A stretch of DNA of 64,000 bases. It comes from Candidatus Cloacimonadales bacterium (GTDB lineage Bacteria > Cloacimonadota > Cloacimonadia > Cloacimonadales > DAONDQ01). The position numbers were made by a program, and so were the translations under genes. Shown here piece by piece: positions 2,944 through 40,700 of this stretch; positions within the stretch are counted from its first letter, which is position 1; every line of letters begins with the position of its first letter. The DNA lies in contig OY759316.1 of the NCBI GenBank assembly GCA_963662275.1, positions 2,880,001 through 2,944,000 of the forward strand, read 5' to 3'. The notes beneath the pieces were generated by a model that was not told the DNA's origin, did not search any database, and saw only the letters and a program-made list of their open reading frames with translations.

Positions 2944-3064
2944 GCGTTCCTCTGTATCTTATTGTAGATTAAATTGGAGCATTTTTGGATATGGGTTTGG
3001 TGTCAAGATGCAAACAAGTGGCTCCGCATTTACGCTGTTGGGTGCTGCTGACTTCAGCCGGTTT

Positions 3065-3109
3065 GGAACGCTGTTTTCTATTGGAACGTTGTTTTCAAAT
3101 GGCTATGCA
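3065..3109. repeat. REP-like family GGAACGCTGTTTTCAAACGGCTATGC
   Basis: Partial plus full copy here. Further copies at ~5324-5347 and ~5379-5404, and in reverse orientation at ~13432-13457 and ~15307-15331. Internal hairpin GCTGTTT-TC-AAACGGC. Confidence 0.7.
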
Positions 3110-3116
3110 TCTGAAA

Positions 3117-3151
3117 CTTCGAACTTCGTACTTCGTATATCGCACTTCGAA
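3117..3151. repeat. Heptamer tandem repeat (CTTCGAA/CTTCGTA/CTTCGCA)
   Basis: The same unit recurs at ~23474-23506 (reverse), ~49219-49238, ~55277-55313, ~56537-56620 and ~58303-58331. Confidence 0.75.
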
Positions 3152-3159
3152 ATAGCTTA

Positions 3160-13636: not shown

Positions 13637-15295
13637 ATGACTAAACATATTCTATTTTTTCTCGCTTTACTTCTTTTCACAGGAATTCTCTCTGCCCAAA
13701 ACCACATGGATATTATGACCACCATGACAGGGGAATTTGATTTTGCAGAAATGGGTTGGATCATGACCACACTCGACTGGAATGGTGATAATTATGATGA
13801 TCTTGTTATTATGGAAAGTGGTTGGCGACCACCTGAACATGTTGGAGACCCAACAGTAAAATCATATGGAAAACTGAATTTCTATTTGGGAGGACCAGAC
13901 TTTGATAATATACCTGAAATAACATTGCCCGGCAGTTATGAACGTGAGTATTGGGCAACCTATTCCATGTGCAATGCGGGCGATATGAATGGTGATGGGA
14001 TAGATGACCTGGCATTGTTTAGGGCAACGATGTATGAAGAGAATATAGATCAGTACTATGACTTGCAGCTCTGCGTCTTTTACGGCGGTGCGAATCCCGA
14101 TACTATCCCCGATTATGTGCTCACTTTCCCGAGGGAGGAATGGGATAATACCTTTTGTCACGTTCGTGGTTTAGGTGATATCAATCACGATGGTTTCGCG
14201 GATATCGGATATATTTCGCTAAGACATGGTTATCCATATCAGATCCAGATTGGTATTACCTATGGTGGAGGTATGTTAAATACAGTATTTGATGAAATTA
14301 GTAATGTCCAGGATAACGCTGATATCTGCGGAATAAGTGATGTCAATGCAGATGGTATAGATGACTTTTATCTCGGATATGGATATGGTTCAAACAGTAA
14401 TCCAACTCATAGGATTGTTCTTTATTATGGCAATTTATCAGGAATATATAGCGATAGTTTAGTGATCGCAGATGATTCAAATCTGAGGAATTCTTTCGCC
14501 TATCCAGCAGGTGACGTAAATGGCGATGGTTATGCAGATATTGTGACCGCATTTAGAGGTTCGAATGCCATACTAGTTTTTGGGGGACCTGGTTTTAATG
14601 GAACAAACTATGTGAATATATCACCACCTTATAACGGAGATGCTGGTGGTGAGGGTTTTGGTCATGGTGATGTGAATGGTAATGGCACAGATGATCTGAT
14701 GGGCACAAATGTTACCCAGTTTAGCGGTTATGGAGACGCCTACCTGTGGATAGGAGGCATTCCTATGAACGGAGGTCCTGATCTGCATTTGACACCACCT
14801 GATCTGCCTTGGCCATTGGAAGTTGATTTGGAGATGTTTGGTTTCTGCCTGACTATGGGCGATTACAATGGCGATGGCTGTTGCGATGCTGCCATTTCGG
14901 CACCTTTTGATTATGCTGGTTTTGCAACTCCTGGACTGGTATTTGTCTATGCCGGAAACACGCAACTGGATGACCCAACCCCCATCTCTGATTATACAAA
15001 TACTCCAGCAATCTCTAAACTGCAGTTGTACCCCAATCCGCTGCAGTCTTGGAATTCTGAACTTAATGTCAGATTTACGGTTACCCCCCCTACCCCCCTT
15101 CCCAAGGGGGGAGCTTCTACCTTTGAAATTTATAATATCAGGGGACAGAAAGTCAAGTCGTTTACTATGAACGCAGAACAAGCCAAATCAGGTTCTGCAA
15201 CTTACAATTTAAATGATCTTTCATCAGGGGTTTATGTGTGTGTTTTCACAAGCGGTGAAGCACAGCAGAAACAGAAGATTACGGTGATTCGGTAG
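13637..15295 (+). CDS. FG-GAP repeat secreted protein with T9SS-type CTD, paralog 2
   Basis: Same architecture as 11775-13421, with long near-identical blocks. Confidence 0.88.
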   Translation: MTKHILFFLALLLFTGILSAQNHMDIMTTMTGEFDFAEMGWIMTTLDWNGDNYDDLVIMESGWRPPEHVGDPTVKSYGKLNFYLGGPDFDNIPEITLPGSYEREYWATYSMCNAGDMNGDGIDDLALFRATMYEENIDQYYDLQLCVFYGGANPDTIPDYVLTFPREEWDNTFCHVRGLGDINHDGFADIGYISLRHGYPYQIQIGITYGGGMLNTVFDEISNVQDNADICGISDVNADGIDDFYLGYGYGSNSNPTHRIVLYYGNLSGIYSDSLVIADDSNLRNSFAYPAGDVNGDGYADIVTAFRGSNAILVFGGPGFNGTNYVNISPPYNGDAGGEGFGHGDVNGNGTDDLMGTNVTQFSGYGDAYLWIGGIPMNGGPDLHLTPPDLPWPLEVDLEMFGFCLTMGDYNGDGCCDAAISAPFDYAGFATPGLVFVYAGNTQLDDPTPISDYTNTPAISKLQLYPNPLQSWNSELNVRFTVTPPTPLPKGGASTFEIYNIRGQKVKSFTMNAEQAKSGSATYNLNDLSSGVYVCVFTSGEAQQKQKITVIR

Positions 15296-25356: not shown

Positions 25357-27080
25357 AAAATACTACCATCTAAAGCTTTTTTTCCTTCAGCGAGTACAAA
25401 ATACATCTTCATTTTCCCCTTGCCTTTGATCTCAGATTCAGAACGTTCTTCACAAATGAAATCATCCTTGATTAGCTGGTACACATCTTCGCTGATGTTG
25501 ATATAATTCACTTCTGAATTTGATTCCATTCGACTGGCAGTATTGATAGTATCACCAAATACATCGTAGATATACTTCTTGATACCGACAATTCCTCCAA
25601 CCACAAAGCCAGTATGCATGCCGATGCGGATATTCCATTTTCGCTCATTGTTTGAATTTCTTTCCTCAAGGTATGACAATATTCCTATGGCAACTTTGGT
25701 CATTCTGATAGCATGGTCAGGTTGTGTGATAGGTAAACCGCAAACGGCAAGATATGCATCTCCAATTGTCTTAATACGTTCACAGCCAAATTCTTCCACA
25801 AGGTTATCGAAAGCTGTAAATATCTCTGAAAGATCTGCTATCAACTCTGCGGGGTCAATCGTGGAAGACATATTTGTAAAGTTCGCAAAGTCGGAAAACA
25901 ATACAGTTACATTCTTGAAAGTCTGAGGCGTAGCTTTACCAAATCTTTTCAGTTCCCTGGCAACTTGGCGAGGAAGGATGTTGAGTAAGAGCTTCTCTGA
26001 TTTGCGTTTTTCCTTCACAATAAAGAAAGTTGCTATCAAACCTAACAGGATAAAGGCAACCAATCCTGCTAGCTGCATTCTTTGCTTCTGAAGATTCAAT
26101 CTGAGTATGCGATTTTCCAATTCTTGCTTCTCAACGGCAAATTGCGTTTGCAGGTTAGCAATATTACGGTTGGTTTCTTCATTGGAAAGGCTATCTCTTA
26201 CGTCTGTATAAAGCTTATAAAACTGAAGCGATTTTAAAGTATTACCCTGCTGCTTATAAATCAGATAACGGTTAAAATAGATATCCCTGGCAACACTAGG
26301 TGCACCAACTTTACGAGAAAGCGTATAAGCTTCATTATAATAATCCAGGGCTGTTGGAATGTTCTGCTTCAATTGGTACAAATATCCTACAATAAGAAGG
26401 TTGACTGCCACTCGCATATCATCATTGTTTGAACGATACAATGCCAATGACTGAAGATTATAGACCAGTGAAGAATCGATTTCTGATTGCATGAGGAAAT
26501 AATTTCCAATATTGTTGAGAGAGTGTGCCTCACCTTCAGTATATTTTACTGTTCTGCACAAAGTAAGAGCTTGTTGATAATAATTATATGCCTTAACAGG
26601 ATTTTTCAGATAATGCAAAGTGAAAATACCTATGTTATTCAACGCATCTGCCAGAGCTTTCTTATCACCCGATTGCCGTCTCAGTTGAAGTGATTGGGTA
26701 AAGTATTCTTTTACTTTATCACCGCTTTGCAGCCTTAAGTAAATATAGCCCATCTGTTCTAAAGCATCTGCCTTACCCTTATTATCATGCGTTGCTTCAA
26801 ATCCCTGTAGTGCCTGGTGACATCGTTCCAGAGCCTTATCATTGGCACCGGCTTTAAAATATCCCTTTGAAAGATAAAGCTGTGCCTTTGCTACTGCATT
26901 GGTATTGTTCTCTTGCTGTGCCAAGAGCAGTGCTTTCCCGGCATAATCCATAGCTTTATCAACAGATTGCTTCAGATTTTGATCTGCCAAAGTTAACAAT
27001 CCGCTGATTTCAGAAGATTTGTCAGCAGTTAAAAACAGACAACGACATAGTAATAGACAGATAAGCAAGTATTTATTCAT
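25353..27080 (-). CDS. Membrane-anchored class III adenylate/guanylate cyclase with extracytoplasmic TPR repeats
   Basis: Signal peptide, TPRs, one TM segment, LLLNILP, VLFSDFANFT, KTIGDAY, YDVFGDTINTASRMES. Confidence 0.92.
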   Translation of the reverse strand: MNKYLLICLLLCRCLFLTADKSSEISGLLTLADQNLKQSVDKAMDYAGKALLLAQQENNTNAVAKAQLYLSKGYFKAGANDKALERCHQALQGFEATHDNKGKADALEQMGYIYLRLQSGDKVKEYFTQSLQLRRQSGDKKALADALNNIGIFTLHYLKNPVKAYNYYQQALTLCRTVKYTEGEAHSLNNIGNYFLMQSEIDSSLVYNLQSLALYRSNNDDMRVAVNLLIVGYLYQLKQNIPTALDYYNEAYTLSRKVGAPSVARDIYFNRYLIYKQQGNTLKSLQFYKLYTDVRDSLSNEETNRNIANLQTQFAVEKQELENRILRLNLQKQRMQLAGLVAFILLGLIATFFIVKEKRKSEKLLLNILPRQVARELKRFGKATPQTFKNVTVLFSDFANFTNMSSTIDPAELIADLSEIFTAFDNLVEEFGCERIKTIGDAYLAVCGLPITQPDHAIRMTKVAIGILSYLEERNSNNERKWNIRIGMHTGFVVGGIVGIKKYIYDVFGDTINTASRMESNSEVNYINISEDVYQLIKDDFICEERSESEIKGKGKMKMYFVLAEGKKALDGSIL

Positions 27081-27287
27081 GAAATAAAACTATTAATTTT
27101 CAAGCTTCTCGTCAACAAAATAAACAGGGAACAGAATAAAAAGCTTATAGCTAGGCACGAAAATCTCTTCTCTAAGGGAGGAGTGGCAGTATATCAAAGA
27201 CATAATAACTTCCTTAAACTGCAAGAAATGTATCTACAGCGTATAGAATAAAAAAACGAAATAATAAAAGAGATTTGCACTTTCAAA

Positions 27288-27336
27288 GGATGCTGTATGG
27301 ATACTTTATCGATGCTTTATGCATGCTGTATGAATC
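27288..27336. repeat. 11-bp tandem repeat (~4 units)
   Basis: ggatgctgtat/ggatactttat/cgatgctttat/gcatgctgtat. Confidence 0.6.
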
Positions 27337-27626
27337 CAAAATATTACATGTGCAAGTTAAGTCTCTTTTCAAGATTCTACCGTGAATGATCTGCCCCCGT
27401 AGAGCCAGTTAAAACTATATTCTAGCACTGAACAAATCTGTGGATGAGTGAAAGTCCAAACAGTTCTAACAATACTGTGAAAACAATTTGTATGCAATCA
27501 CAAAAAATATATTTTTAATTCTTGACTTAAAATAATAACATAGGTAAATACTGAATCATATTCATTTATTAAATCCTATGTGGGTTTTATACAATTATGA
27601 CTACAATAACTACCGGGAGGTGTTGT

Positions 27627-30600
27627 GTGAAGAACATTCTTTGTGTTTTGGTTTTCATTATTTTGTGTTGTATGAATTGCTTCTGTTTTGGCGCGAATAA
27701 GGTCTCAAAAACTAATTTGTCAAATCATAAACAAATAGCCATTCCACAAATAGGACAATTCAATAAAACAGATTTCAGGGATGCAAATCCCCCTAGTGAT
27801 GTAACGATTTCTGTCAATGCAGGGATTGTCACTTTATCTTGGTCAGCAGTTTTTAATGCTGCCAGTTATAAAGTAGAAGCTTCGAATACAAATAATCGAG
27901 GTTTTACTGATGTTACTACATCGGGGACATTCAATATTCAAACCGGCATTATTAGTTGGTCAAAATCTGTTACGGAAGATTATGCATTTTTTAGAATTAG
28001 ATCTTTTACCAGTCCGATTCCAAGTAATTTTGTTTTGGTTCAGCGCGGTACTTTTTTTAATGGAACATCTGATGTGACAATTTCATCATTCTATATGAAT
28101 AAATATGAAATTACACAGTCTGAATTCATGGCTGTAATGGGGATGAATCCCTCAAGTTATTATGGGATTTATGGAATAGGAGATGATTTTCCCGTTTACA
28201 ACATCACTTGGGCAAATGCAATCGTTTATTGCAACAAGAGAAGTATTAGCGAAGGATTGACTCCATGTTATAGCTATACAGAACCATATGATGGAACAAA
28301 TTATGGGTCAAATCCCACTAGTTGGCCAACGGATTGGTATTTGGAGGTTTGGATTCCTGAGACCCCCCCTATACCTTCATATTCGTATCAGAAATCCTGG
28401 GGCTTAGCATGTAATTGGGAAGCAAATGGTTATCGCTTACCAACAGAAATGGAGTGGATGTTTGCTGCACGAGGAGGAAATTTATCTCATGACTATTTCT
28501 ATAGTGGAGGAAATGAAATAGATTCTGTTGCCTGGTGGGGAGGAACTAACTTTGGAGGTAATTCTTCTGATTCGATACATGTAGTAGGAACAAAATCTCC
28601 AAATGAACTGGGTCTCTATGATCTGAGTGGTAACGTTAATGAATGGTGTTGGGATATGTACGATATCTATCCAGCAGGAGCACAAGTCAATCCCCATGGA
28701 CCGACATTGCAGAATACTCGTGTCTTCCGAGGTGGTTGCTGTGAAAGTGCGGCATCGAATTGCTTAGTTTCATATCGTAATGACAATTCAATCGATGGAA
28801 ACGTTTCTGAAATCGGCTTCCGAATCTGTCTGAATGATCCAAATACGGTCCTGCCTCCCACGTTTTCTCCTGTTACAGGGACATACTTAATTCCCCAAAA
28901 TGTGAGTATTACTTCAAATACTTTCGGTGCAACTATTCGCTACACAATCGATGGTTCTACACCTTCTACCACAACTGGCATGATTTACAGCTCTCCTATC
29001 CTGGTGGATCATACACTTTCGATCAAAGCAATTGCATATAAAAGCGGATATACTACTTCCGAAATAACCAGTGCTTTGTATACGATCAATCTCACAGTAA
29101 CGAAACCGACCTTCTCTCCTCCCGGCGGACAGTATAGCAGTTCCCAATCAGTTAGTATCATATGTCCGATTACTGGGGCTCAGATCAGATATACGACAGA
29201 TGGCAGCAATCCTACTGAAAGCTCGAGCCTGTATCAAAATCCTATTAGTGTGAATCAGTTCACGACCATTAAAGCCAAGGCATACAAAACGGGATGGACT
29301 GCATCTCAAATATCGACAGCAGTCTATACATTCAGTTCTGACTTTGCGCTTGTGACAGGGGGCATCTATAATACTGGATTGGGCACCATTACTGTTCCAA
29401 GTTTCTATGTGGAAAAACATGAAATTACTAAAGATGAATATGAAGCTATTATGTTTTACAGTTCCTCTGTTTTCACTGGAGTTCTTAATGGACCTGTAAA
29501 TAATGTCACATGGTTCAACGCAATTGAGTATTGTAATAGAAGAAGTATTCAAGAAGGACTTACTCCTTGCTACAGTTTCAATAATGGAACAGATTATGGA
29601 ACGAATCCTTCCTATTGGCCTCTGGATTGGAACCAGGAATGGTATGAAGAAGGATATTCTGAAGTCCGTAATTACTCCATGTATGTGTTATGCAATTGGA
29701 ATGCCAGTGGTTATCGTCTTCCATCAACTTCTGAATGGGTTTTTGCATCCCGTGGTGGAAACCTGACTCATAATTATTCCTTCAGTGGAAGCAACACAAT
29801 TGGAGATGTTTCCTGGTATCTAACGAATTCCATTAACACAACACATAGTGTAGGCTTAAAAACAGCCAATGAGCTTGGCATATTCGATATGTCGGGCAAC
29901 GTCTGGGAATGGTGTTGGGATGCATATTTTGATGAAATGAACATGACTCCCAGTATGGGTGAAAGTCATTATCTTGAAGGTGGAAGCTGGAATAGCGAAA
30001 GCTACAACATGTATTCATCTTGGGATAATGCTTTGAGTTATAATAATTATTCCGGTTTCAGGATATACCGTCGCGATCCTAATATGGTGGCAATTCCATC
30101 ATTTTCACCTGCCGGAGGGGCATACTCGAGTACACAGACAGTAAGTATCTCATGTACAATTCCCGGAGTACAGATACGTTATACAACCAATGGTACAGAA
30201 CCAACTGAATCCTCTTCACTATATAATTCAGCACTCACGATTTCTCAGACGACAATCTTAAAAGCAAGAGCTTTTAAATCAGGTTTTACACCTTCGGAAA
30301 TCAAGGCAGCAGGATATGTAATTGGTTCTCCATCCTCACAAATGGTAACAGTTACGGGAGGAACATTCAACAACGGATTTGAGGATGTCACAATCTCTAC
30401 TTTCATGATGAATAAATATGAAGTTTCTCAAGCTTCATTCCTGGCAGTGATGGGATATAACCCATCGTATTGTTATGGTGTCAGTGCCAACTATCCCGTT
30501 TATTACATCACCTGGTTCAATGCAATTGAGTATTGCAACAAACGCAGCATAACTGAAGGTTTGACTCCTTGCTATCGTTTTAATAACGGTACTGATTATG

Positions 30601-33600
30601 GTACTGATCCAAACAACTGGCCTTCTTCATGGACAGCTATGTGGAATATGCCTGGTATGTGGTTTCCAAATAATAATTCGACTAGCATATTTTATAATTC
30701 CCTGGCGAACGGTTATCGCTTGCCCTCTAGATCTGAATGGATGTTTGCTGCACGCGGTGGGAACCTGACTCATAATTATACATACAGCGGCAGCAATACC
30801 ATTGGAAATGTAGCCTGGTATAGTACAAATTCAAGTTCTGCAGTTCACCAGGTAGGGACAAAAACAGCAAATGAGCTTGCTCTCTACGATATGACAGGCA
30901 ATGTAAGCGAATGGTGCTCAAATAATCCTGATTATGATCCTTTGATGCCTCCGTGGATCATGTGGGAAGAATATCAATACAGCCGTAATATCGTAGGTGG
31001 CAGTTGGAGTAGCCCTGATACAGATTGTGCAGTAGCTTCACAACTCGGCTACAGCCATACTTCATATACGTCAAATTCATATGGCTTCCGGGTTTGCAGA
31101 TTTGAATTCGAAACAGTTGCCCCACCTGTGCTTTCTCCTGTTGGTACAACCTATAACAATACCCAGTCTGTATCCATCTCTACAGCAACAATCGGTGCAA
31201 CAATACGATATACAACGAATGGATCAACACCTTCCACGACCGTAGGTACGATTTATAGCAGTCCGATTAGTGTTACAACCAGCCAGACCATCAAGGCTAT
31301 AGCTTATAAAACCGGTTGTATAACTTCAACAATAGCCTCAGAGACCTATAGTTTAGTAGTTGATGTACCTGTCTTTTCTCTTCTGCCGGGAACCTACCTT
31401 TCTTCACAGACTACCACTATCACGACCAACACTACGGGAGCATCCATCAGATATACTACTGATGGTTCAACACCAACTTCTACAACAGGCACTCTTTATT
31501 CATCTCCTATCAGTATCAATTCGAGTCAAACAGTGAAAGCCATTGCCTATAAAACCGGTATGGTCTCATCAAATGTAATCTCTTCTGTATATACAGTAAA
31601 CCTGACAGTTAGCAGCCCTACTTTTTCCCATGCCAGCGGTGCTTATACGAACGCTATTACGGTGGCTATCAACTGTTCTACTTCCGGGTCTACGATTAGA
31701 TATACTCTCGATGGCAGTGAACCTACCATTTCATCTCAACAAAGTTATGGTTCAGTTTACATAAATGCTACTCGAATCCTCAAAGCAAAAGCTTTTAAAA
31801 CGGATTGGACCGCTTCTGCAACTTCCACAGCTCTATATTCTTTTATTAGCTCTCAGTCGGAAATGGTCTATATCGCAGGGGGAACATTCAATAATGGTAC
31901 ATCGAATGTCACATTATCTTCCTTCTATATCGATAAATATGAATGCACCCAGGTTGATTATCAATCAGTCATAGGCAGTAATCCTTCATCACAATTTGGA
32001 ATTGGATCGAATTATCCTGCTTACGGTATGGGATTCAGGGGAGCAATTGAATATTGTAATAAGCGTAGCATCATTGAAGGTTTGACACCATGCTACAGTT
32101 ACAGTACTTATGGCACAGCTACAAGTAGCTGGCCTTATAATTGGTGTTATGAGGCGAACCATGTCAATCTAAGCTGCAATTGGACAGCCAATGGTTACAG
32201 GTTACCGTCTGAAATGGAATGGATGTATGCTGCCAGGGGTGGGAGTTCAACCCATAATTACACTTACAGTGGAAGCAATGATGTAACAGCGGTGGGCTGG
32301 TGTTACCCTTATGCGGCGAATACAACACATACAGTTGGTTCTAAAAATTCGAATGAACTTGGGCTATATGATATGACGGGGAACTTGAGTGAATATTGTT
32401 GGGATATCTGGTCTGAAACATATCCTAGTGGTCAACAAACAAATCCGCATGGACCTGCTTCTGGTACGACAAGAGTAGTTCGAGGTGGAAATTTCGATTA
32501 TGAGCCAGTGTTTTCTACTGTTTCTTATCGAGATTATAGCAGTACTGATGCAGGATCTTCAAACTACGGTTTTCGTCTTTGCAGAACCTCTGTATCCATA
32601 CCTATGCAACAGCATTTTACCAGGGTAGAAGGAGGTACTTTCAATAATGGAGCTTCAGATGTTACTTTATCACCTATCCTCCTCGATAAATACGAAGTAA
32701 CACAATCATCATACCAGTCAATAATGGGAAGTATCCCCTCTACTTCGTATGGGAACGGTTCGGATTATCCTGTATATGGTGTTTCCTGGTTCAATGCATT
32801 TGAATATTGCAATAGAAGAAGTTTGAGTGAAGGTTTGATTCCATGCTACAGTTATCGAACTTACGGAACAAACCCGAACACTTGGCCCACCGGATGGAAT
32901 TCTAGTGGTAATAACTTCACATATTTTACCTGTAACTGGGAAGCGAACGGTTATCGTTTACCTACTGAAATGGAGTGGATGTTTGCAGCCAGGGGTGGTA
33001 ATCTTACACAAGGTTATACTTACAGTGGCAGCAATAATATAAATACCGTAGCATGGTATAACTCCAACTCTAGCTATGCAACTCATATTGTGGGATCGAA
33101 AACAGCGAATGAATTGGGGTTATACGATATGAGCGGAAATGTCAATGAATGGTGCTGGGATTCATACGGCAGTTATCCTTACGGACCTCAAACCAATCCT
33201 CACGGAGCAACAGATGGATACTATCAGGATTACCGTATTCTTCGCGGTGGAGGATTTGATGGCTCAAGTACAAGTTGTACAACAAGTTATAGAAGCTACA
33301 ATCTTGCTTATTACACTAACTTGTATGGCTACAACTATGGTTTCCGTATCTGTAGGAATGCACCATCTCAAATCGTTGCTACACCAACTTTTAACATGGC
33401 TGCAGGTATTTATAACAACGCGATTGATGTGAGCATCAGTTGTTCAACACCTGGTGCCAGTATCTACTATACAATCAATAATTCACTTCCTACAGAAAGC
33501 TCGATGCTTTATCAAAACCCGGTAACAATCAGCCAGACTACATACCTCAGGGCAATAGCATTTAAGACAGGATGGACACCTTCAGAGGAAAAACATGAAT

Positions 33601-36600
33601 CGTATAACCTGACCATAGCAACTCCTACTTTTTCTGTTGCCGGTGGTGTCTACACAAGTACTCAGACTGTTAATCTACAGACAGTGACAACCGGTACTGA
33701 AATCCGCTATACAACGAATGGCAGTGAACCCACCGAGACATCGTCTCTCTACACAAATCCGCTCAGTATTTTTCAAACTACCACGTTAAAAGTAAAAGCC
33801 TATCGTACTGGCTGGAATCCTTCTTCTACAGCAACTGCCATCTATACAATCAATAACTTAGTCCTTGTCGATGGCGGTACCTTTAATAATGGCACTTCGA
33901 ATGTGACAGTGAGCAGTTTCTATCTGGATAAGTACGAACTAACACAAGCTGCCTATCAGGCTGTGATGGGTACGAATCCTGCTTCAAGCTATGGTGTAGG
34001 CAGTTCATATCCCGTATATTTTGTATCTTGGTTCAATGCTATAGAATATTGTAACAAGAGAAGTATCTCCGAAGGACTGACTCCCTGCTATAGTTACAGC
34101 ACTTATGGCACAAATCCGACAGCATGGCCTTCCGGCTGGAATACCAGTGATGACAACCATACCAACGTGACTTGCAACTGGACAGTAAATGGATACAGAC
34201 TTCCAACTGAAGCGGAATGGGAATTTGCTGCACGAGGCGGTAATTCAACCCATGGTTATACCTATAGCGGTAGTAATACCATTGACGGGGTAGCGTGGTA
34301 TAGTTCAAATTCAAGCAGCATTTCACATGTCATTGGTTCCAAAGCAGCAAATGAGCTTGGTATCTATGATATGAGCGGTAACGTCTGGGAATGGAATTGG
34401 GACATTTATGGCACCTATCCCAGCGGATCGCAAAATAATCCGCATGGAGTAGTCAGCGGGTCTGCCCGTGTGTTACGTGGCGGTTGCTGGGCAGACGTTA
34501 CTGGCGGCTGCGCTAGTTCCTTTCGGAACCATTTCAGTGCGTCTTCCGGCGCTGGCACTATAGGCATCCGCATCTGCAAGAATGTACCTGCTCCGCCAAT
34601 ACAGGAATCCTATGTGTTGGTGGATGGTGGTACTTTCAACAACGGTACATCCGATGTTGCTTTATCATCCTTCTATATGTATAAGACGGAACTCACTCAA
34701 TCTTTATATCAAACTGTGATGGGAACTAATCCAGCATCAGGGTATGGAGTCGGAAACGATTATCCTGTATATAATGTTAACTGGTTTAAAGCCATAGAAT
34801 ACTGTAATAGACGGAGTATTAACGAAGGACTGACTCCGTGTTACAGTTACAGTACATATGGTGGAAATACTGCTAACTGGCCTTCTGGTTGGAACACAAG
34901 TAACTCTAACCATACGAATGTATCTTGTAACTGGACTGCTGATGGATATCGTTTACCTACAGAAATGGAATGGCAATTTGCAGCTCGAGGTGGTAATCTG
35001 TCACATAATTATACATATAGCGGTAGTAATACTCTCAATTCAGTAGCTTGGAACTCTTCAAACGCACCATACACAACCCATTCTGTGGGAACACTAACTG
35101 CAAATGAACTTGGCATCTATGATATGAGTGGTAATATTTGCGAATGGGTGTGGGATATATACGATAATTATCCAAGCAGTACTCAGATTAATCCACATGG
35201 TCCAACAAGTGGTCTTTACCATGTCCAGCGCGGAGGAAGTTGGGGTTTTTATCCTGAAAATTGTGCAGTTTCATCTCGAGTTGTCAACAATCCCACAGAC
35301 AGTAACTACTTTCTTGGTTTCCGTCTCTGCCGCAGCATCCCAGCACCACCTGTATTGGAAAGCTATCTTCCGGTACCTGGCGGTACTTTCAACAACGGCA
35401 CTTCAGATGTGACAATATCATCTTTCTCTATAAGCAACTATGAAGTGACTCAATATGCCTACAAGTTAGTCATGGGTACAAATCCTTCCTATTTCAGCAA
35501 TGATTTGAACAAACCCGTTGATTCCGTTACATGGTTCAATGCCATTGAATATTGTAATCGGAAAAGCATCAGTGAAGGATTAACTCCGTGTTACACGTAT
35601 ATTGGTTATGGTACAAATCCTTCAAGTTGGCCTTCCGGGTGGAATACCAGTAACGCCAACCATGTTTACATCTCCTGCAATTGGGCAGCATTTGGTTATC
35701 GTCTTCCTACTGAAATGGAATGGCAGTTTGCTGCAAGAGGTGGTACATTAACAAATAATTATTCCTATGCCGGTAGCAACACTATAGATGCTGTTGCCTG
35801 GTATCTCACTAATGCCGGTAATTACACTCACCAGGTTGGAACAAAAGCATCTAATGAACTTAGTCTGTATGATATGAGCGGTAACGTCTGGGAATGGAAT
35901 TGGGATATTTATGGCACATATTCCAGCGGACTGCAAGCTAACCCTCATGGCGTCGTCAGCGGGTCTGCCCGTGTAGTACGCGGCGGTAGCTGGACAGACG
36001 TTCCCGGCGGTTGCACAGTTTCCGGTCGGAACAGCCTCAATGCGACTGACATCGGTCCCAATATAGGTTTCCGTATCTGCAGGATCATGCCAATCCAAAA
36101 TGCATTGATTTCCGTACCTGGCGGAACATTCAATAATGGAACTTCGGATGTGACGATCTCAACATTCTCAATGGAAAAATATGAAACAACTCAAACAGCT
36201 TATCAAGCTGTCATGGGTAATAATCCTTCTTATCGGACGAGTATAGCCAATGGACCTGTCGAGCAGGTTACATGGTACAATGCTATCGAATATTGCAACA
36301 GGAGAAGCATCAGTGAAGGTCTGACTCCCTGCTATAGTTACAGCACTTATGGTACAAATCCTTCGAACTGGCCTGCTAATTGGAATGCAGTTGTTAACAT
36401 TACGAATTTAACGTGCGATTGGGCAACAGCCAATGGTTATCGGTTACCTACTGAAATGGAATGGCAATTCGCTGCCCGTGGTGGTAACCTGACGCATAAT
36501 TACGCATATAGCGGGAGCAATACTGTGACTACGGTAGCTTGGTGTAATTCAAATTCCGGAAGCACAACACATACTGTTGGAGATAAGCTCCCGAATGAGT

Positions 36601-37574
36601 TAGGTTTATATGATATGAGCGGTAATGTCATGGAATGGGTATGGGACAAATATGCAAGCACTTATCCCAGCTTTAATCAGTTTAATCCCCATGGACCGAG
36701 CACAGGGGAAGGAAGAATATATAGGGGAGGCGGTTATATGATTTCTGATACCCAATGCCAGGTTACATTACGTAGCTACGATTATGAAGCTAGTTGGTCA
36801 TTTTACATGGGCTTCCGTGTCTGTAAAAATAACCCGAGTTTTGTATTTGTTCCGGGTGGTACGTTTAATAATGGCACTTCTAATGTGACAGTATCAGATT
36901 TCAAGATGGAAAAATGGGAAGTTAGGCAGGCTGACTACCAAGCAGTAATGGGAACGAATCCAGCATATGATTATGGAGTCAGCAGCAATCATCCTGTGCA
37001 CTACGTGTCATGGTTCAATACTGTTGAGTACTGTAATAAACGCAGCATACAGGAGGGATTTACACCTTGTTATAGCTATGGAACTTATGGTACTAATCCT
37101 TCCAGTTGGCCTTCCGGGTGGAATACATCAAATGATAATCATGTGAATGTGAATTGCAATTGGATGGTGAATGGTTATCGTCTTCCCACAGAAGCTGAAT
37201 GGGAATTCGCTGCAAGAGGTAGTAATCTAACCCATAATTATATTTATAGTGGTAGTAATACGATTGATAATATAGGATGGTATCAGTCAAATTCTGGTAA
37301 TACTAGCCATATTGTTGCAACCAAAACTGCCAATGAACTTGGCATTTATGATATGACCGGGAATGTATGGGAATGGTGTTGGGATATATATGATACTTAC
37401 CCAGCAAATTCACAGACGAATCCTCACGGAGCAATTTCAGGGATATACCGTATTAATCGTGGTGGAGCTTTTTCAAATGTGGATTACGGTTGTACAATAG
37501 CCAATAGGAATTACGGATCGGCAACTATTAATCACAATTACTATGGATTCCATATCTGTCAGAATGCACAATGA
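27627..37574 (+). CDS. Giant surface protein: 10 FGE-sulfatase (CLec-fold) domains and 8 CHB_HEX_C/Fn3-associated spacer domains
   Basis: Ten units of GGTFNNG...YExTQ...GYRLPTExEW...NELGxYDMSGNVxEW...RGG...GFR. Eight units of PTFS...IRYTxDGxxP. GTG 27627 follows the RBS GGGAGG (the ORF track starts at 27597). Confidence 0.9.
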   Translation: MKNILCVLVFIILCCMNCFCFGANKVSKTNLSNHKQIAIPQIGQFNKTDFRDANPPSDVTISVNAGIVTLSWSAVFNAASYKVEASNTNNRGFTDVTTSGTFNIQTGIISWSKSVTEDYAFFRIRSFTSPIPSNFVLVQRGTFFNGTSDVTISSFYMNKYEITQSEFMAVMGMNPSSYYGIYGIGDDFPVYNITWANAIVYCNKRSISEGLTPCYSYTEPYDGTNYGSNPTSWPTDWYLEVWIPETPPIPSYSYQKSWGLACNWEANGYRLPTEMEWMFAARGGNLSHDYFYSGGNEIDSVAWWGGTNFGGNSSDSIHVVGTKSPNELGLYDLSGNVNEWCWDMYDIYPAGAQVNPHGPTLQNTRVFRGGCCESAASNCLVSYRNDNSIDGNVSEIGFRICLNDPNTVLPPTFSPVTGTYLIPQNVSITSNTFGATIRYTIDGSTPSTTTGMIYSSPILVDHTLSIKAIAYKSGYTTSEITSALYTINLTVTKPTFSPPGGQYSSSQSVSIICPITGAQIRYTTDGSNPTESSSLYQNPISVNQFTTIKAKAYKTGWTASQISTAVYTFSSDFALVTGGIYNTGLGTITVPSFYVEKHEITKDEYEAIMFYSSSVFTGVLNGPVNNVTWFNAIEYCNRRSIQEGLTPCYSFNNGTDYGTNPSYWPLDWNQEWYEEGYSEVRNYSMYVLCNWNASGYRLPSTSEWVFASRGGNLTHNYSFSGSNTIGDVSWYLTNSINTTHSVGLKTANELGIFDMSGNVWEWCWDAYFDEMNMTPSMGESHYLEGGSWNSESYNMYSSWDNALSYNNYSGFRIYRRDPNMVAIPSFSPAGGAYSSTQTVSISCTIPGVQIRYTTNGTEPTESSSLYNSALTISQTTILKARAFKSGFTPSEIKAAGYVIGSPSSQMVTVTGGTFNNGFEDVTISTFMMNKYEVSQASFLAVMGYNPSYCYGVSANYPVYYITWFNAIEYCNKRSITEGLTPCYRFNNGTDYGTDPNNWPSSWTAMWNMPGMWFPNNNSTSIFYNSLANGYRLPSRSEWMFAARGGNLTHNYTYSGSNTIGNVAWYSTNSSSAVHQVGTKTANELALYDMTGNVSEWCSNNPDYDPLMPPWIMWEEYQYSRNIVGGSWSSPDTDCAVASQLGYSHTSYTSNSYGFRVCRFEFETVAPPVLSPVGTTYNNTQSVSISTATIGATIRYTTNGSTPSTTVGTIYSSPISVTTSQTIKAIAYKTGCITSTIASETYSLVVDVPVFSLLPGTYLSSQTTTITTNTTGASIRYTTDGSTPTSTTGTLYSSPISINSSQTVKAIAYKTGMVSSNVISSVYTVNLTVSSPTFSHASGAYTNAITVAINCSTSGSTIRYTLDGSEPTISSQQSYGSVYINATRILKAKAFKTDWTASATSTALYSFISSQSEMVYIAGGTFNNGTSNVTLSSFYIDKYECTQVDYQSVIGSNPSSQFGIGSNYPAYGMGFRGAIEYCNKRSIIEGLTPCYSYSTYGTATSSWPYNWCYEANHVNLSCNWTANGYRLPSEMEWMYAARGGSSTHNYTYSGSNDVTAVGWCYPYAANTTHTVGSKNSNELGLYDMTGNLSEYCWDIWSETYPSGQQTNPHGPASGTTRVVRGGNFDYEPVFSTVSYRDYSSTDAGSSNYGFRLCRTSVSIPMQQHFTRVEGGTFNNGASDVTLSPILLDKYEVTQSSYQSIMGSIPSTSYGNGSDYPVYGVSWFNAFEYCNRRSLSEGLIPCYSYRTYGTNPNTWPTGWNSSGNNFTYFTCNWEANGYRLPTEMEWMFAARGGNLTQGYTYSGSNNINTVAWYNSNSSYATHIVGSKTANELGLYDMSGNVNEWCWDSYGSYPYGPQTNPHGATDGYYQDYRILRGGGFDGSSTSCTTSYRSYNLAYYTNLYGYNYGFRICRNAPSQIVATPTFNMAAGIYNNAIDVSISCSTPGASIYYTINNSLPTESSMLYQNPVTISQTTYLRAIAFKTGWTPSEEKHESYNLTIATPTFSVAGGVYTSTQTVNLQTVTTGTEIRYTTNGSEPTETSSLYTNPLSIFQTTTLKVKAYRTGWNPSSTATAIYTINNLVLVDGGTFNNGTSNVTVSSFYLDKYELTQAAYQAVMGTNPASSYGVGSSYPVYFVSWFNAIEYCNKRSISEGLTPCYSYSTYGTNPTAWPSGWNTSDDNHTNVTCNWTVNGYRLPTEAEWEFAARGGNSTHGYTYSGSNTIDGVAWYSSNSSSISHVIGSKAANELGIYDMSGNVWEWNWDIYGTYPSGSQNNPHGVVSGSARVLRGGCWADVTGGCASSFRNHFSASSGAGTIGIRICKNVPAPPIQESYVLVDGGTFNNGTSDVALSSFYMYKTELTQSLYQTVMGTNPASGYGVGNDYPVYNVNWFKAIEYCNRRSINEGLTPCYSYSTYGGNTANWPSGWNTSNSNHTNVSCNWTADGYRLPTEMEWQFAARGGNLSHNYTYSGSNTLNSVAWNSSNAPYTTHSVGTLTANELGIYDMSGNICEWVWDIYDNYPSSTQINPHGPTSGLYHVQRGGSWGFYPENCAVSSRVVNNPTDSNYFLGFRLCRSIPAPPVLESYLPVPGGTFNNGTSDVTISSFSISNYEVTQYAYKLVMGTNPSYFSNDLNKPVDSVTWFNAIEYCNRKSISEGLTPCYTYIGYGTNPSSWPSGWNTSNANHVYISCNWAAFGYRLPTEMEWQFAARGGTLTNNYSYAGSNTIDAVAWYLTNAGNYTHQVGTKASNELSLYDMSGNVWEWNWDIYGTYSSGLQANPHGVVSGSARVVRGGSWTDVPGGCTVSGRNSLNATDIGPNIGFRICRIMPIQNALISVPGGTFNNGTSDVTISTFSMEKYETTQTAYQAVMGNNPSYRTSIANGPVEQVTWYNAIEYCNRRSISEGLTPCYSYSTYGTNPSNWPANWNAVVNITNLTCDWATANGYRLPTEMEWQFAARGGNLTHNYAYSGSNTVTTVAWCNSNSGSTTHTVGDKLPNELGLYDMSGNVMEWVWDKYASTYPSFNQFNPHGPSTGEGRIYRGGGYMISDTQCQVTLRSYDYEASWSFYMGFRVCKNNPSFVFVPGGTFNNGTSNVTVSDFKMEKWEVRQADYQAVMGTNPAYDYGVSSNHPVHYVSWFNTVEYCNKRSIQEGFTPCYSYGTYGTNPSSWPSGWNTSNDNHVNVNCNWMVNGYRLPTEAEWEFAARGSNLTHNYIYSGSNTIDNIGWYQSNSGNTSHIVATKTANELGIYDMTGNVWEWCWDIYDTYPANSQTNPHGAISGIYRINRGGAFSNVDYGCTIANRNYGSATINHNYYGFHICQNAQ

Positions 37575-37582
37575 TAACATAC

Positions 37583-37612
37583 AGGGGGCTGGAGACTAGT
37601 CTCTAGCCCCTT
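37583..37612 (+). terminator. Hairpin after the giant gene (terminator-like)
   Basis: GGGGCTGGAGA-CTAG-TCTCTAGCCCC followed by TTT. Confidence 0.6.
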
Positions 37613-37732
37613 TCTCTAGCCACTGGTCTCTTGTCTCTATTCTCTTCCCACTCCTTCTTAACAATTAAAACATTTGACAATTATTAAGCAAACTACAATA
37701 GGATAATTATTATTTATTAACTTGGAGATCGA

Positions 37733-40700
37733 ATGTCTAATATCAGTTTTATCGAGTATGAGCCGCAATATGCAAAAGCAGTTGCCGATATGTGGAACAG
37801 GAGCAGCAGCGTCTGGAATGGACGAATCTTCAATAGCAGTGAAAAAAAAGTCCTTCAGGAAGAAGAGAATTCAACTTACCTGAATTTGTATCTTGCTGTC
37901 ATCGATTCATTGGTCATTGGCTATGCAAAGTTTTCTCCATACCCTGAAGAAAAGGGAGTTTCCTACATTGATATGTTGGGTGTAGATCCTGAGTGGCATG
38001 GTAAAGGCATCGGGAAAGTTTTAGTGCAGAAATGTGTGCTCAGGGCTGCTGAGTTAGGATATGATAGAATTGATCTCTTTACCTGGCCTGGTAATACCAA
38101 AGCGGTTCCTCTCTACAAGAAGTGTGGCTTTTTCTGGGAAAAGATGGAAATGCAAGTGACTCATCTAATGAACTTTATTCCTGGATTACTCAACAATGAA
38201 CTGATCAAGCCTTATTTTGATTACTTTGACTGGTATCTTGATTCTAAGAGAGAAATAGAGATAAAGCCTGACGGAAGATGTGATAATGGCTTTGAAATCT
38301 ATGATTATATATGGGAAAAAGAAGATAAAAAACTCCAGATTTCTTTTGAAAAAAGAGGAAGAGGTATCATTGCTATCACAACTTCTGATTTTCATATTTC
38401 CACTTATACTCCTGAAGCGAAACCAGTATTCGGAACAGAATACCCTATCACATACAGGCTGGAATCCTTTATGGACGAACCAATTGAAGTATTTCTCCAG
38501 GGAGAGAATGATCGTGAAATTGACTTTACTTTTGCTCATTCACAGAGCTTAGTTAATAAATTAGAATTGAATGCAGGTTTCTATCTGAATTCAATCACAA
38601 AAGAACTAACTGAATGGGATACTTTACCCAGTGTAGTAACAAAACTAAACATTATGGGTAAATCCGTAAGGATGAAAACAGGGTTGAAGATTCAATATCC
38701 GCTAGATACTACGTTTGCGATGGAAAAAAGCTTAGTGACACCCAGCCATGATCAAGTTCTTTATCTGAATGTACAGAATTGTTTTTCATGCAAATGCTTA
38801 TATCGGATAGATTTTGAGAATGAAGAACCGCTGCAATTGGAAAGAAAGAGTTTTGAAATTAACCTCAAACCACGCGAAAGGAGTTATATTCCCATCAAAT
38901 TCACAACTCCCGAGGCTTGTATCATCTATCCGACATTAAAGATAACAGCCCTGCCGGAAAACGGAAAAGAAGTTCAATTTAACCGGCAAATTCATTACCA
39001 AATCTACACTCTCACATCCAAAGCACAGAAAGTTTTACCTAATCAGTACATTTTGCTCAATGGTAGGATGAGTGTCAGTTTTGATCAATTGGGAAACAAG
39101 AATTGGGGAATGTTTCAAATTATGCAGGGTATGGGTTTCAATCTTTGCCCTCCAAGAGTTGGAAAGCCATATTCTGAAGAGTTTGACCAGGAACTACCCT
39201 ATGATGTACAAGTGAATGATCTCGGTGTGGCGAATGAGTTAGTCATGTATTTCCGTTCCAAAGAGTTTCAAGGAGTTGAGTTTGCTTATGTTTACAAGCT
39301 GTATCCAACCGGGCTGATGGAATTTCATATCAGGATCATCAATCTGCCAATCCAGGAACAGAATGTCTTTGCGAAACTAAGGTTTTGTATTTATGGTGAA
39401 AATCTCGTTTGTGAACTGGGTGGAAGGTTGATCAAATTAGAAAACGATATGCCTGGATTAGATACAAATAATCTGGATGGTGAAGAGTTTAGTAAAAACT
39501 GGGCATTTTCCAAATATGATGATTGTACAAGTGCCATGATTTGGGATAAGAATTGGCATGCATGTATCGACAGATGGTTTGTTTGTTGGGATATTAACTT
39601 AAGCGATTATTATGCTCGAGGTTTACAAGAAACAGAGCCGGTTCTTCTTTACATTGATGTCTTTCAAAATGCTTTTGAAGTGAGAAATGTTGCTGAAGAA
39701 TGTAATAAAAAAGTGGAACCTATGTATCCATCTCTTGAGCTTGTTATTAACAATGAGGATCCATTCCCTGGTCATGCATATGAAGTGAAACTCATCCAGC
39801 ACCAGACTGAAAACTTGAGAGGAAGCTTCATTTTAAGTTCTTCTACAAATGCAATATTACGTGAAGAAATCAAGCATAAATTTGAGGATGAAGTACGCGA
39901 AATCAAATGGACAGTTGAAGCCCATTCAAAGAAACCAATGGAGGTGATCAACTGTGAAGCCAGGTTGCCACTCTATACAGTAGAGCGAAAGCAAATTGTT
40001 TTTCATGAAAAAGGTGAAGTCAGATTCGCTGAAACTAGTGATATTAACGATACACTCCTTGTTGCCGATAATGGCATCATTCAAATCACAACCGCCAAGG
40101 ATGCACGAATACCCAATTTGCTCTCTCTTATTCATGAGGGAAGGGAGTGGCTGGATAATAGTTATCCTGAATATGCTCCTAAATCAAATTACAATCCTTA
40201 TCCTGGGGGAATGACCATAACACCTTGGCAGCTTAGGATCATGAATCTGATGAATGAAACGCACGAAATAAAGAAGGCTAGCCTGTTAGATCAGTGGGGG
40301 CATAAGTGGGAAGGATTGGAAATGAGATCCTCAATTACTAATTTCGACCCTTTACAAGGTTTGGTATATGTACAATATTATCTGATGAGACCTGGTGTAC
40401 CAATTCTTGCAATCACAACCAAGATCATCACAGATACCGGTCATGCCGAATACATACCCTTTTGTTTGAATATGTTTTTCAAACCAAATGGTGAAATACA
40501 GAATAGCAGTATCGACATTCCCTGTGAAGATAATCGTTGGCATATGCTTCATGCTGGGAGTGAGGCTTTTTATCTTCGGAATTCATATCGGCATGTAAAG
40601 ATAAAAAACATGAAATCAGATTATATGCTCAATATCTTAAGTTTGGGGAAATCCTATCACGATATTCACATTGATCCGCAAATTCTCAGGGATAAGTGTT

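Follow-up and report, generated by a model that had tools for sequence, protein, structure and literature searches.

The largest FGE gene of this Candidatus Cloacimonadales genome encodes ten FGE-type domains in one chain. The explanation that best accounts for it, which we hold at a probability of about 70%, is a multivalent, non-enzymatic protein in which ten TvpA-type (FGE-subclass C-type-lectin-fold) domains sit on Ig-like CHB_HEX_C_1 spacers, and which is in part an archive of binding tips that were once written by a DGR and are now frozen. The gene lies within the window (the whole 64,000-nucleotide stretch analysed), and nothing in the present assembly would make it a DGR target that is still active.

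Architecture and export of the ten-domain protein

The single ORF has an in-frame alternative start ten codons further in, which is the start used by the database copy P0002 (Table 1). Pfam places ten FGE-sulfatase stretches and eight CHB_HEX_C_1/Fn3_assoc stretches in the protein, and the PF03781 profile scores 1124.7 bits over its whole length (cut-off 23.3). The gaps after D1, D2, D3 and D5 match two, one, three and two spacers in size, respectively, in agreement with the domain and spacer counts of the preliminary description; the linkers between D4 and D5 and from D6 to D10 measure only 6–13 aa. A T9SS C-terminal sorting domain (Por_Secre_tail or CHU_C) was not found in the protein by Pfam search, as had been noticed earlier, whereas four neighbouring proteins carry a tail of this type. 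The protein is predicted to be Sec-exported. With a different tip displayed by every domain, it would be a multivalent and multi-specific ligand binder, possibly serving as an adhesin or capture protein.

Table 1. Features of the ten-domain gene and its 3′ flank (window coordinates)
Feature	Position	Strand	Remarks
Complete ORF	27597..37574	+	3325 aa; 3315 aa from start 27627
N-terminal region	27597..28031	+	signal-like hydrophobic segment, then ~85 aa up to the first FGE domain; without firm Pfam assignment
D1, FGE/CLec	28032..28829	+	insertion after WP motif; without DGR footprint
Spacer block after D1	28830..29345	+	172 aa; size of two CHB_HEX_C_1 domains
D2, FGE/CLec	29346..30068	+	without DGR signature
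Spacer block after D2	30069..30344	+	92 aa; size of one CHB_HEX_C_1 domain
D3, FGE/CLec	30345..31097	+	–
Spacer block after D3	31098..31865	+	256 aa; size of three CHB_HEX_C_1 domains
D4, FGE/CLec	31866..32582	+	without DGR signature
D5, FGE/CLec	32619..33353	+	C3 8/14 at TR-Asn columns; identity to provirus TR at non-A positions just 0.46
Spacer block after D5	33354..33860	+	169 aa; size of two CHB_HEX_C_1 domains
D6, FGE/CLec	33861..34577	+	tail 34476-34577: DGR footprint; non-A identity to provirus TR 0.82; T at 3/3 AAT columns
D7, FGE/CLec	34614..35330	+	tail 35229-35330: weak footprint; T at 3/3 AAT, C3 at 6/11 AAC columns; identity 0.64
D8, FGE/CLec	35367..36080	+	tail 35979-36080: DGR footprint; identity 0.83; framework codons common to paralogs
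D9, FGE/CLec	36108..36824	+	without footprint
D10, FGE/CLec, terminal	36843..37559	+	tail 37458-37559; without footprint or IMH-like end
Stem-loop	37583..37612	+	putative terminator; 13-bp stem, 4-nt loop, then TTTCTCT

Variable tips and their codon footprint

The tip of each domain comprises around 26 residues from RGG to GFR and is different in all ten, while the scaffold retains 43 invariant columns. Pairwise nucleotide identity is 55%–70% between scaffolds and 26%–51% between RGG..GFR tails (the tails of D6 and D8, at 68%, are the exception), and D1–D3 carry insertions past the WP motif; conserved scaffolds with divergent tails and WP loops had been described beforehand, and this picture holds. 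Because synonymous sites are saturated at 55%–70% nucleotide identity, entropy and codon tests were used to compare the domains in place of dN/dS. Columns at which the template repeats (TRs) of real DGRs encode Asn (TR-Asn columns) are the most variable: in the ten domains, entropy over the 14 such columns is 2.43 bits, compared with 1.43 for the other columns covered by a TR (p = 2e-4) and 0.99 for all remaining columns (p = 1e-8), and across all 40 domains the values are 3.20, 1.70, and 1.20 bits. When all 239 columns are ranked by variability, 13 of the 14 fall in the top 30. Evenly spread variability, the observation named at the outset as speaking against diversified tips, is thus not seen.

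Third-base C (C3), conditional on the amino acid, is in excess, at 47 of 131 codons in the ten-domain gene (33.8 expected; z = 2.8) and 188 of 399 in the other 30 domains (111.6 expected; z = 9.1). At 12 variable scaffold columns, which served as a control, z is −0.5 and −1.2, respectively; at the interleaved non-Asn columns of the 30 paralog domains, C3 is also somewhat in excess (z = 4.1). The choice between third-base T and C follows the AAT and AAC columns of the TR of a relative (L106), with T3:C3 ratios in the other 30 domains of 62:17 at AAT columns versus 102:171 at AAC columns (p = 1e-10), and in the ten-domain gene of 15:4 versus 47:43 (p = 0.04), albeit all codon p-values are overstated, as the domains are paralogs and their counts non-independent.

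Within the ten-domain gene the footprint is modest (z = 2.8; T/C p = 0.04) and comes mainly from D6 and D8, with five or six domains showing none. The NNC/NNT signature at TR-Asn positions is present in D6 and D8, weak in D7 and D5, and absent from D1, D2, D4, D9, and D10; D10, for example, has C3 at 3/11 AAC columns and an identity to the provirus TR of 0.47 at non-A positions. Family-wide, about 14 of 40 full domains, D6, D8, and weakly D7 included, keep NNC/NNT codons patterned as in the TRs of relatives. These footprint-bearing domains are 82%–94% identical at non-A positions to the TR on an IMG/VR provirus fragment (L116); four paralogs reach 0.94, 0.91, 0.88, and 0.85, followed by D8 and D6 (Table 1), and most remaining domains of the ten-domain protein lie at 0.36–0.54. 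Conserved residues force a part of this non-A identity; its baseline is ~0.45–0.55. The tails that bear the footprint, those of D6 and D8 among them, also have framework codons in common.

The internal domains all end in C[RK]xx[PQ], as do the stand-alone paralogs, and then continue with a sense codon where the paralogs have TGA, a pattern consistent with a chain put together from modules that were once terminal. Similarity to active VRs of relatives identifies an IMH-like end (AGG GTT TCC CCT TGA), which is present in single-domain paralogs, mostly decayed after D6–D8, and absent after D10. The protein terminates four residues past D10, and the hairpin reported to follow is indeed there (−23.3 kcal/mol; z = −2.4; 5/200 shuffles fold equally well). 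Strong hairpins lie downstream of 18% of the 33 FGE genes and 18% of 200 other ORFs; the stem-loop was therefore rejected as a DGR element and is most simply read as an intrinsic terminator. The suggestion that this 3′ end has the layout typical of DGR targets does not survive, as D10 lacks both footprint and IMH-like end and hairpins are equally common elsewhere.

A genome without a DGR

A DGR-type reverse transcriptase (RT) was not found in the complete genome, in which DGR RT queries (L060 and L116) match just 17 group II places at 26%–30% identity. The 18 RVT_1 matches of the genome are 17 group II RT copies and one RT-Cas1; three RT loci that were scanned score 378–417 bits on TIGR04416 (cut-off 300). 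Nor was a TR found in the window or the complete genome by a scan that was validated on real TR/VR pairs and recovers such pairs in relatives; its matches in L024, L061, and L065 had the appearance of tandem or ambiguous repeats. Two FGE-like matches outside ORFs (genome positions 1701000–1701390 and 1953187–1953400) were considered as TRs and rejected as truncated pseudogene fragments. Because the complete genome is without reverse transcriptase and template repeat, the tips are probably frozen now. In 2016, genomes lacking RT or TR were described whose VRs differ from the TRs of related genomes mainly at adenines, and their authors read them as remnants (PMC4891356). Probable VR remnants in a genome without RT or TR are likewise found here; that study, however, compares strains of one species, whereas the present case is a 33-ORF family in a Cloacimonadota-like genome, and the closest template found belongs to a provirus fragment of other origin.

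Of 201 genomes from the same order, 44 have DGR-like RTs, and a scan of 16 such loci found adjacent TR/VR pairs in 11. The provirus fragment carries an RT together with a TR of the predicted framework; a full FGE target was not found in its 26.5-kb record, which is 23% complete. Such an element raises the alternative that the family is still a live target in trans, its tips, including the internal ones of the ten-domain gene, being rewritten by an RT and TR on a phage, provirus, or plasmid that lies outside the assembly or is only intermittently present. The provirus fragment itself speaks for this, as does the want of a full FGE target of its own, though in a record so incomplete, and the IMH-like end of the single-domain paralogs resembles that of active VRs in relatives. 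Remote DGR targets are known (PMC8144416 and PMC5758913), and the latter paper (Wu et al. 2018) documents a target in which three FGE-sulfatase domains stand in tandem and every one is diversified; it shares with the present protein the presence of several FGE domains per ORF and of internal variable regions. That target, however, is served by an active cassette and stops at three domains; here there are ten, with a footprint in only two or three and no cassette. Against continued rewriting, the best tail in the genome agrees with the provirus TR at 0.94 of non-A positions, whereas in genome G003 the identity between the active VR and its TR is 0.99. The capsid-like protein of the provirus was not found in the genome, the ends of D6–D8 lack most of the IMH-like motif, and contigs of four runs show no variant letters over the gene, which is weak evidence as contigs drop rare variants. 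Rewriting in trans is, on balance, unlikely.

A second alternative dispenses with DGR history: duplication and diversifying selection on a binding surface would have produced the tips, and preferences for certain amino acids, or local ones for certain codons, would have generated the codon pattern incidentally. Binding sites are in any case typically rich in Tyr, Ser, Asn, Asp, and Gly, the scaffolds are old (55%–70% nucleotide identity), and half or more of the ten domains are without footprint. The C3 excess nevertheless survives conditioning on the amino acid and is missing at variable scaffold columns, the use of T versus C by column tracks an independent TR, and synonymous framework codons agree with the provirus TR at up to 94%. 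Ordinary divergence is improbable as a general account: it fits poorly with D6, D8, and those paralogs that have a single domain, but is viable for D1, D2, D4, D9, and D10.

Fold and loss of catalysis

In formylglycine-generating enzymes (FGEs), the RGG/KGG motif is followed by a conserved, catalytic pair of active-site cysteines (C-x4-C). Its first Cys is kept in 0/10 domains and its second in 8/10, and in an alignment with 6muj the first corresponds to an Asp in D8; retention of the full catalytic pair, named in advance as a case against a binding role, is not seen. Among solved structures, TvpA (2y3c_A) comes closest, with E = 4.7e-37 over D8 residues 13–237, whereas catalytic FGEs match at ~1e-10. 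These results support the view that all ten domains are non-catalytic, binding-type CLec/FGE modules. An array of catalytic formylglycine-generating enzymes or related oxidases in a single chain, as the PF03781 matches and the NCBI title of a relative ('SUMF1/EgtB/PvdO family nonheme iron enzyme') might suggest, is scarcely credible given the loss of the first Cys throughout and the much greater nearness of TvpA than of every enzyme.

TvpA of Treponema denticola (PDB 2Y3C) is a DGR variable protein of the FGE-subclass C-type-lectin fold, with a C-terminal RGG...GFR tip in the same place as here, and is described in PMC5758913 as non-catalytic, as the present domains appear to be. It differs in being a single domain with a cognate TR and RT, as opposed to ten domains in one chain and a genome without either. 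AlphaFold2, given an alignment of 10 rows, modelled D8 poorly (mean pLDDT 57.6; <50 at the tip), and the tip would be a variable surface by homology with TvpA.

Family and relatives

The genome encodes 33 FGE ORFs with 49 domain matches, and 29 of the 33 terminate 2–5 aa past the domain. Many paralogs carry lipoprotein-like or Sec signals. A tree of 50 domains and a scaffold-only tree of 49 (long-branch row g3561114.d1 left out, last 42 aa trimmed) are both star-like; the ten domains intermix with paralogs (8 changes), and an AU test does not reject their forming a single clade (p = 0.297). We therefore claim neither that the domains were shuffled nor that they arose by one tandem expansion.

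A multi-domain orthologue was not found in a DNA search of 20 relatives, which returned single-domain matches only, at ≤70%. In a genome of the same genus (G001), the downstream gene has an orthologue (52% identity), but the genes ahead of it are housekeeping genes with no FGE gene among them, and the upstream cyclase has a 32% domain match only. Arrays of 9–11 FGE domains do occur in other proteins from public metagenomes. The alternation of FGE and CHB_HEX_C_1 domains is the same in P0003 (7 FGE + 6 CHB_HEX) and P0018 (5 + 4; 'Candidatus Cloacimonas sp.'), and P0021, P0023, P0032, and P0036 have 11 FGE domains each, three of the four with a dockerin as well. None of these giant proteins is orthologous to the ten-domain protein (best local identity 52% over 25% of the query), the comparison being of proteins only. 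A metagenome scan with P0003 gave 79 loci and did not return the seven-domain locus; one FGE domain was found in 85 ORFs, two in 4, and three in 2, and TR/VR pairs were present in 12 of the 79 loci, the 8 assignable ones all in single-domain genes.

Concatenation of separate FGE genes by the assembly, a danger recognised from the start, is very improbable: Logan contigs from runs of two studies, which may include the source sample, tile 27000–38200 with 0 differences and contain every domain junction internally, the genome forms a single, N-free contig, and the domains share just 55%–70% identity, the only contrary point being that Logan unitigs break at shared motifs within domains.

Proposed history and meaning

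The favoured reading of the ten-domain protein as a partial archive would run as follows. The 33-ORF FGE family would descend from DGR targets, and mutagenic retrohoming from an AAC/AAT-rich TR would have written the tips of about one-third of the family's domains, including D6, D8, and weakly D7. That TR would have been nearly identical to the one on the provirus fragment and related to DGR TRs in genomes of the same order. RT and TR would since have disappeared from the genome, leaving the tips frozen; those of D1, D2, D4, D9, and D10 would be much older or would have diverged by ordinary mutation and selection. The relative order of fusion and diversification is something we infer. As first proposed, the protein was an archive of differently diversified binding modules. 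Distinct tips, variation at DGR-mutable columns, and the footprint of D6 and D8 (weaker in D7) uphold this in part; it does not extend to the five domains without a DGR signature, and neither RT nor TR is present.

A more tentative scenario, which we put forward as possible, is that a mobile, provirus-borne DGR acted in trans on the whole chromosomal family, wrote the tips of at least 14 lectin-fold domains (internal ones of the ten-domain protein included), and then left. The host would keep a fixed library of specificities, with the giant protein as concatenated frozen products. If this were true, a related element could, on re-entry, rewrite those single-domain paralogs whose IMH-like end is intact.

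DGR surveys seek an RT and a nearby TR/VR pair, and thus genomes like the present one are scored as DGR-free. Such a DGR-free, complete genome nonetheless still shows the writing template in about one-third of an FGE-domain family, both at third codon positions and in synonymous codons of the framework; scoring NNC/NNT column patterns against the TRs of relatives would be a simple, testable means of detecting past DGR activity. The present case also suggests that paralog expansion and fusion into multivalent proteins can preserve what a DGR has written over long periods, and the FGE family represents a large outlay on exported, putative binding proteins by a Cloacimonadota-like anaerobe.

Architecture and integrity of the ten-domain gene

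Positions 27597–37574 on the plus strand of the window form a single reading frame of 3325 aa; the start given in the preliminary description, 27627, is in frame ten codons further on and is also that of the database copy, P0002 (3315 aa). Pfam detects ten domains of the formylglycine-generating-enzyme (FGE) type, FGE-sulfatase (D1–D10 in chain order), and eight CHB_HEX_C_1/Fn3_assoc stretches, matching the ten domains and eight spacers of the preliminary description. Its spacer counts of two, one, three and two after D1, D2, D3 and D5 are compatible with gaps of 172, 92, 256 and 169 aa, the remaining junctions measuring 6–13 aa. The N terminus carries a hydrophobic, signal-like segment, and the C terminus lies four residues past D10. 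As had been claimed, Pfam finds no T9SS sorting domain here but does so in four neighbouring proteins. The chain is unlikely to result from misassembly: contigs in Logan from runs of two studies, possibly including the source sample, tile 27000–38200 without a difference and place each domain junction inside a contig, and the genome is a single 4.38-Mb contig with no N.

Conserved scaffolds and divergent RGG...GFR tails, also claimed earlier, are borne out by nucleotide identities of 55–70% and 26–51%, respectively, the exception being the D6/D8 tails (68%). The domains are old copies. Among solved chains, D8 comes closest to TvpA of Treponema denticola (2y3c_A, E = 4.7e-37), a variable protein of a diversity-generating retroelement (DGR); catalytic FGEs score about 1e-10. 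In FGE, a C-x4-C cysteine pair is catalytic; D8 aligned to Streptomyces FGE 6muj places Asp opposite the first cysteine, which is present in 0/10 domains (the second in 8/10). The domains thus appear to be binding-type modules rather than enzymes.

Coordinates of features (domain bounds set by the conserved frame; FGE paralogs are examples among others)
Feature	Location	Strand	Basis or remark
D1	protein residues 146-411	+	GGTFNNG...GFRxC frame
D2	584-824	+	GGTFNNG...GFRxC frame
D3	917-1167	+	GGTFNNG...GFRxC frame
D4	1424-1662	+	GGTFNNG...GFRxC frame
D5	1675-1919	+	GGTFNNG...GFRxC frame
D6	2089-2327	+	GGTFNNG...GFRxC frame
D7	2340-2578	+	GGTFNNG...GFRxC frame
D8	2591-2828	+	GGTFNNG...GFRxC frame
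D9	2838-3076	+	GGTFNNG...GFRxC frame
D10	3083-3321	+	GGTFNNG...GFRxC frame
Single-domain FGE paralog	genome 134760-136091		
Single-domain FGE paralog	genome 458917-460389		
Single-domain FGE paralog	genome 2269172-2270293		
Single-domain FGE paralog	genome 2780300-2782228		
Single-domain FGE paralog	genome 3267885-3268829		
Single-domain FGE paralog	genome 3646008-3646895		
Single-domain FGE paralog	genome 3761663-3762553		
Single-domain FGE paralog	genome 3951846-3952943		
Single-domain FGE paralog	genome 4247351-4248478		
Single-domain FGE paralog	genome 4325562-4326449		
FGE fragment	genome 1701000-1701390		pseudogene
FGE fragment	genome 1953187-1953400		pseudogene
30-nt element	genome 460424-460453		
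30-nt element	genome 2268926-2268955		
30-nt element	genome 3951726-3951811		
Group II intron RT/maturase	genome 735026-736393		one of 17 places
Group II intron RT/maturase	genome 754380-755711		one of 17 places
RT-Cas1 fusion	genome 3092718-3095399		893 aa
Transposase/integrase	window 3239-4516		
Transposase/integrase	window 10050-11492		
Transposase/integrase	window 50286-51890		
Transposase/integrase	window 52352-54367		
FG-GAP protein	window 11775-13421		T9SS tail
FG-GAP protein	window 13637-15295		T9SS tail
TPR + sigma-54 activator	window 7168-9420		
TPR + sigma-54 activator	window 58537-60777		
VR, L112 (G003:C1)	locus 8047-8190	-	in-frame TGA
TR/VR pair, L036	locus 10526-11002		Bacteroidales MAG
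TR/VR pair, L031	locus 10450-10956		unclassified MAG

The window region is rich in mobile DNA, its four transposase/integrase genes representing the IS110 and Mutator families, DDE_Tnp_1_6, and a pair of an integrase and an IS91-type Y2 transposase. It also holds two adjacent paralogous FG-GAP proteins and two paralogous TPR and sigma-54 activator proteins.

The FGE family in the genome and its relatives

A profile HMM built from the ten domains matches 49 domains in 33 ORFs of the genome, one of them a three-domain protein; most paralogs carry Sec or lipoprotein-like signals. Two truncated fragments retain recognisable tails. The closest relatives outside Cloacimonadota are in Treponema and Spirochaetaceae. 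Neither a DNA search of 20 relatives nor the syntenic place in a genome of the same genus (G001) yielded a ten-domain ortholog. Among metagenome proteins, P0003 combines seven FGE with six CHB_HEX_C_1 domains, P0018 five with four, and four unrelated proteins hold 11 FGE stretches each. PMC5758913 describes one DGR target in which three FGE domains stand in tandem and each is diversified; outside supplementary files, no paper was found on multi-FGE arrays of this size, nor any description of DGR footprints in Cloacimonadota.

A codon footprint in the tails

The genome's 40 full-length domains were aligned with four real variable regions (VRs), and the 14 columns with Asn in two or more of three real template repeats (TRs) were designated TR-Asn columns. 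Entropy at these columns, at other TR-covered columns and elsewhere is 2.43, 1.43 and 0.99 bits for the ten domains, and 3.20, 1.70 and 1.20 bits for all 40. This contrast, with 13/14 TR-Asn columns ranking in the top 30 of 239 for variability, shows that variability is not evenly spread but concentrated where DGRs mutate.

Given the amino acid, third-base C at TR-Asn columns exceeds expectation in the ten domains (47/131 against 33.8, z = 2.8) and in the other 30 (188/399 against 111.6, z = 9.1). At interleaved non-Asn columns the excess is smaller (z = 1.1 and 4.1), and at twelve equally variable scaffold columns it is absent (z = -0.5 and -1.2). Such an excess is the expected residue of AAC-to-NNC mutagenesis. 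Tails bearing the footprint, those of D6 and D8 included, share synonymous framework codons such as CGG (Arg), GTT TCC and GCG ACT. Moreover, columns at which a relative's TR (L106) reads AAT instead of AAC favour T over C: T3:C3 is 62:17 at AAT against 102:171 at AAC columns in the other 30 (p = 1e-10), while the ten domains give 15:4 and 47:43 (p = 0.04), with T at 3/3 AAT columns in each of D6, D7 and D8.

DGR machinery and a candidate template

In the present assembly, the ten-domain gene is no active DGR target. The 18 RVT_1 matches of the genome comprise 17 reverse transcriptase (RT) copies, in two sequence families with one copy truncated, and an RT-Cas1 fusion; three RT loci scanned score 378–417 bits on the NCBIfam group II intron RT/maturase model (cut-off 300). 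DGR RT queries (a bona fide one from L060 and the provirus RT of L116, described below) reached only those 17 places, at 26–30% identity. No TR was recovered by BLAST of the tails against the genome, by adenine-mismatch repeat scans of the window or the genome (33 matches, 0 at FGE genes), or by a nucleotide HMM of the tails (36 matches in FGE ORFs plus the two pseudogene fragments); the only sites to match a degenerate TR motif were two VR-like ones, with 3 mismatches each. The adenine-mismatch scan gave 3 clear TR/VR pairs among 79 related loci, and pairs in 11/16 same-order loci adjoining DGR-like RTs and in 12/79 metagenome loci. At two loci with TR/VR pairs, the flanking ORFs scanned in Pfam included no RT; they include DNA pol III tau at L036 and, at L031, Uma2 along with a transketolase and an epimerase-like gene.

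DGR-like RTs (E <= 1e-25) are absent from this genome and its genus-mate but occur in 44/201 genomes of the order (34/133 high-quality ones), and the TRs of these DGRs share the framework of the tails. Cloacimonadota DGR RTs are mentioned in PMC11661182. In L112, of a complete same-order genome (G003), the VR of an apparently active DGR target has an in-frame TGA replacing TR AAA; its own mutagenesis has thus knocked this copy out.

The degenerate framework motif found one IMG/VR record (G201), classed as a provirus (26.5 kb, 23% complete), with an RT (343 aa) and Asn-rich TR at the fragment end (about 25400–26555 of 26555) adjoining ORFs that, by eye, resemble phage structural genes. No full FGE target lies on this partial record. 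PMC8144416 acknowledges that remote targets escape cassette-based surveys. The provirus TR has the codon framework previously inferred from the paralogs. At its non-A positions, four single-domain paralogs are 0.94, 0.91, 0.88 and 0.85 identical, D8 0.83, D6 0.82, D7 0.64 and the remaining domains 0.36–0.54; for comparison, identity between the active VR and its cognate TR in G003 is 0.99. Single-domain paralogs such as those tabulated have NNC at 9–12/14 TR-Asn columns and 0.74–0.94 identity to the provirus TR outside its adenines, and their IMH-like 3′ ends are intact; they are better candidates than the ten-domain gene for recent or re-activatable DGR targets.

Gene ends and overall reading

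The terminal tail and hairpin had been taken as a DGR-target layout. A genuine hairpin does lie at 37583–37612 (stem of 13 bp, -23.3 kcal/mol, z = -2.4), but the argument fails: strong hairpins follow 18% of FGE genes (n = 33) and 18% of other ORFs (n = 200), and this one is best read as a terminator. Ending directly after the tail is a family trait, as 29/33 FGE ORFs stop 2–5 residues beyond the domain. Separately, a 30-nt hairpin-forming element occurs at 10 places in the genome (<=3 mismatches), 7 immediately downstream of five footprint-bearing FGE paralogs, some in tandem.

Single-domain paralogs keep the 3′ end AGG GTT TCC CCT TGA and a T-rich tract, as after relatives' active VRs; TRs diverge there from VRs as IMH* does from IMH. 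The C[RK]xx[PQ] motif with which stand-alone proteins end is retained by all ten domains, and after it a sense codon takes the place of the paralogs' TGA, consistent with a chain assembled from terminal modules.

The features first noted in the sequence are confirmed, and the proposed multivalent repertoire of differently diversified modules survives in part. Binding-type modules, with variation at the DGR-mutable surface, stand, and of the internal tips two or three are probably ex-DGR products; a live target in this assembly does not, and D10 has neither footprint nor IMH-like end. The case would gain in interest if chromosomal families proved to be written in trans by a mobile DGR.
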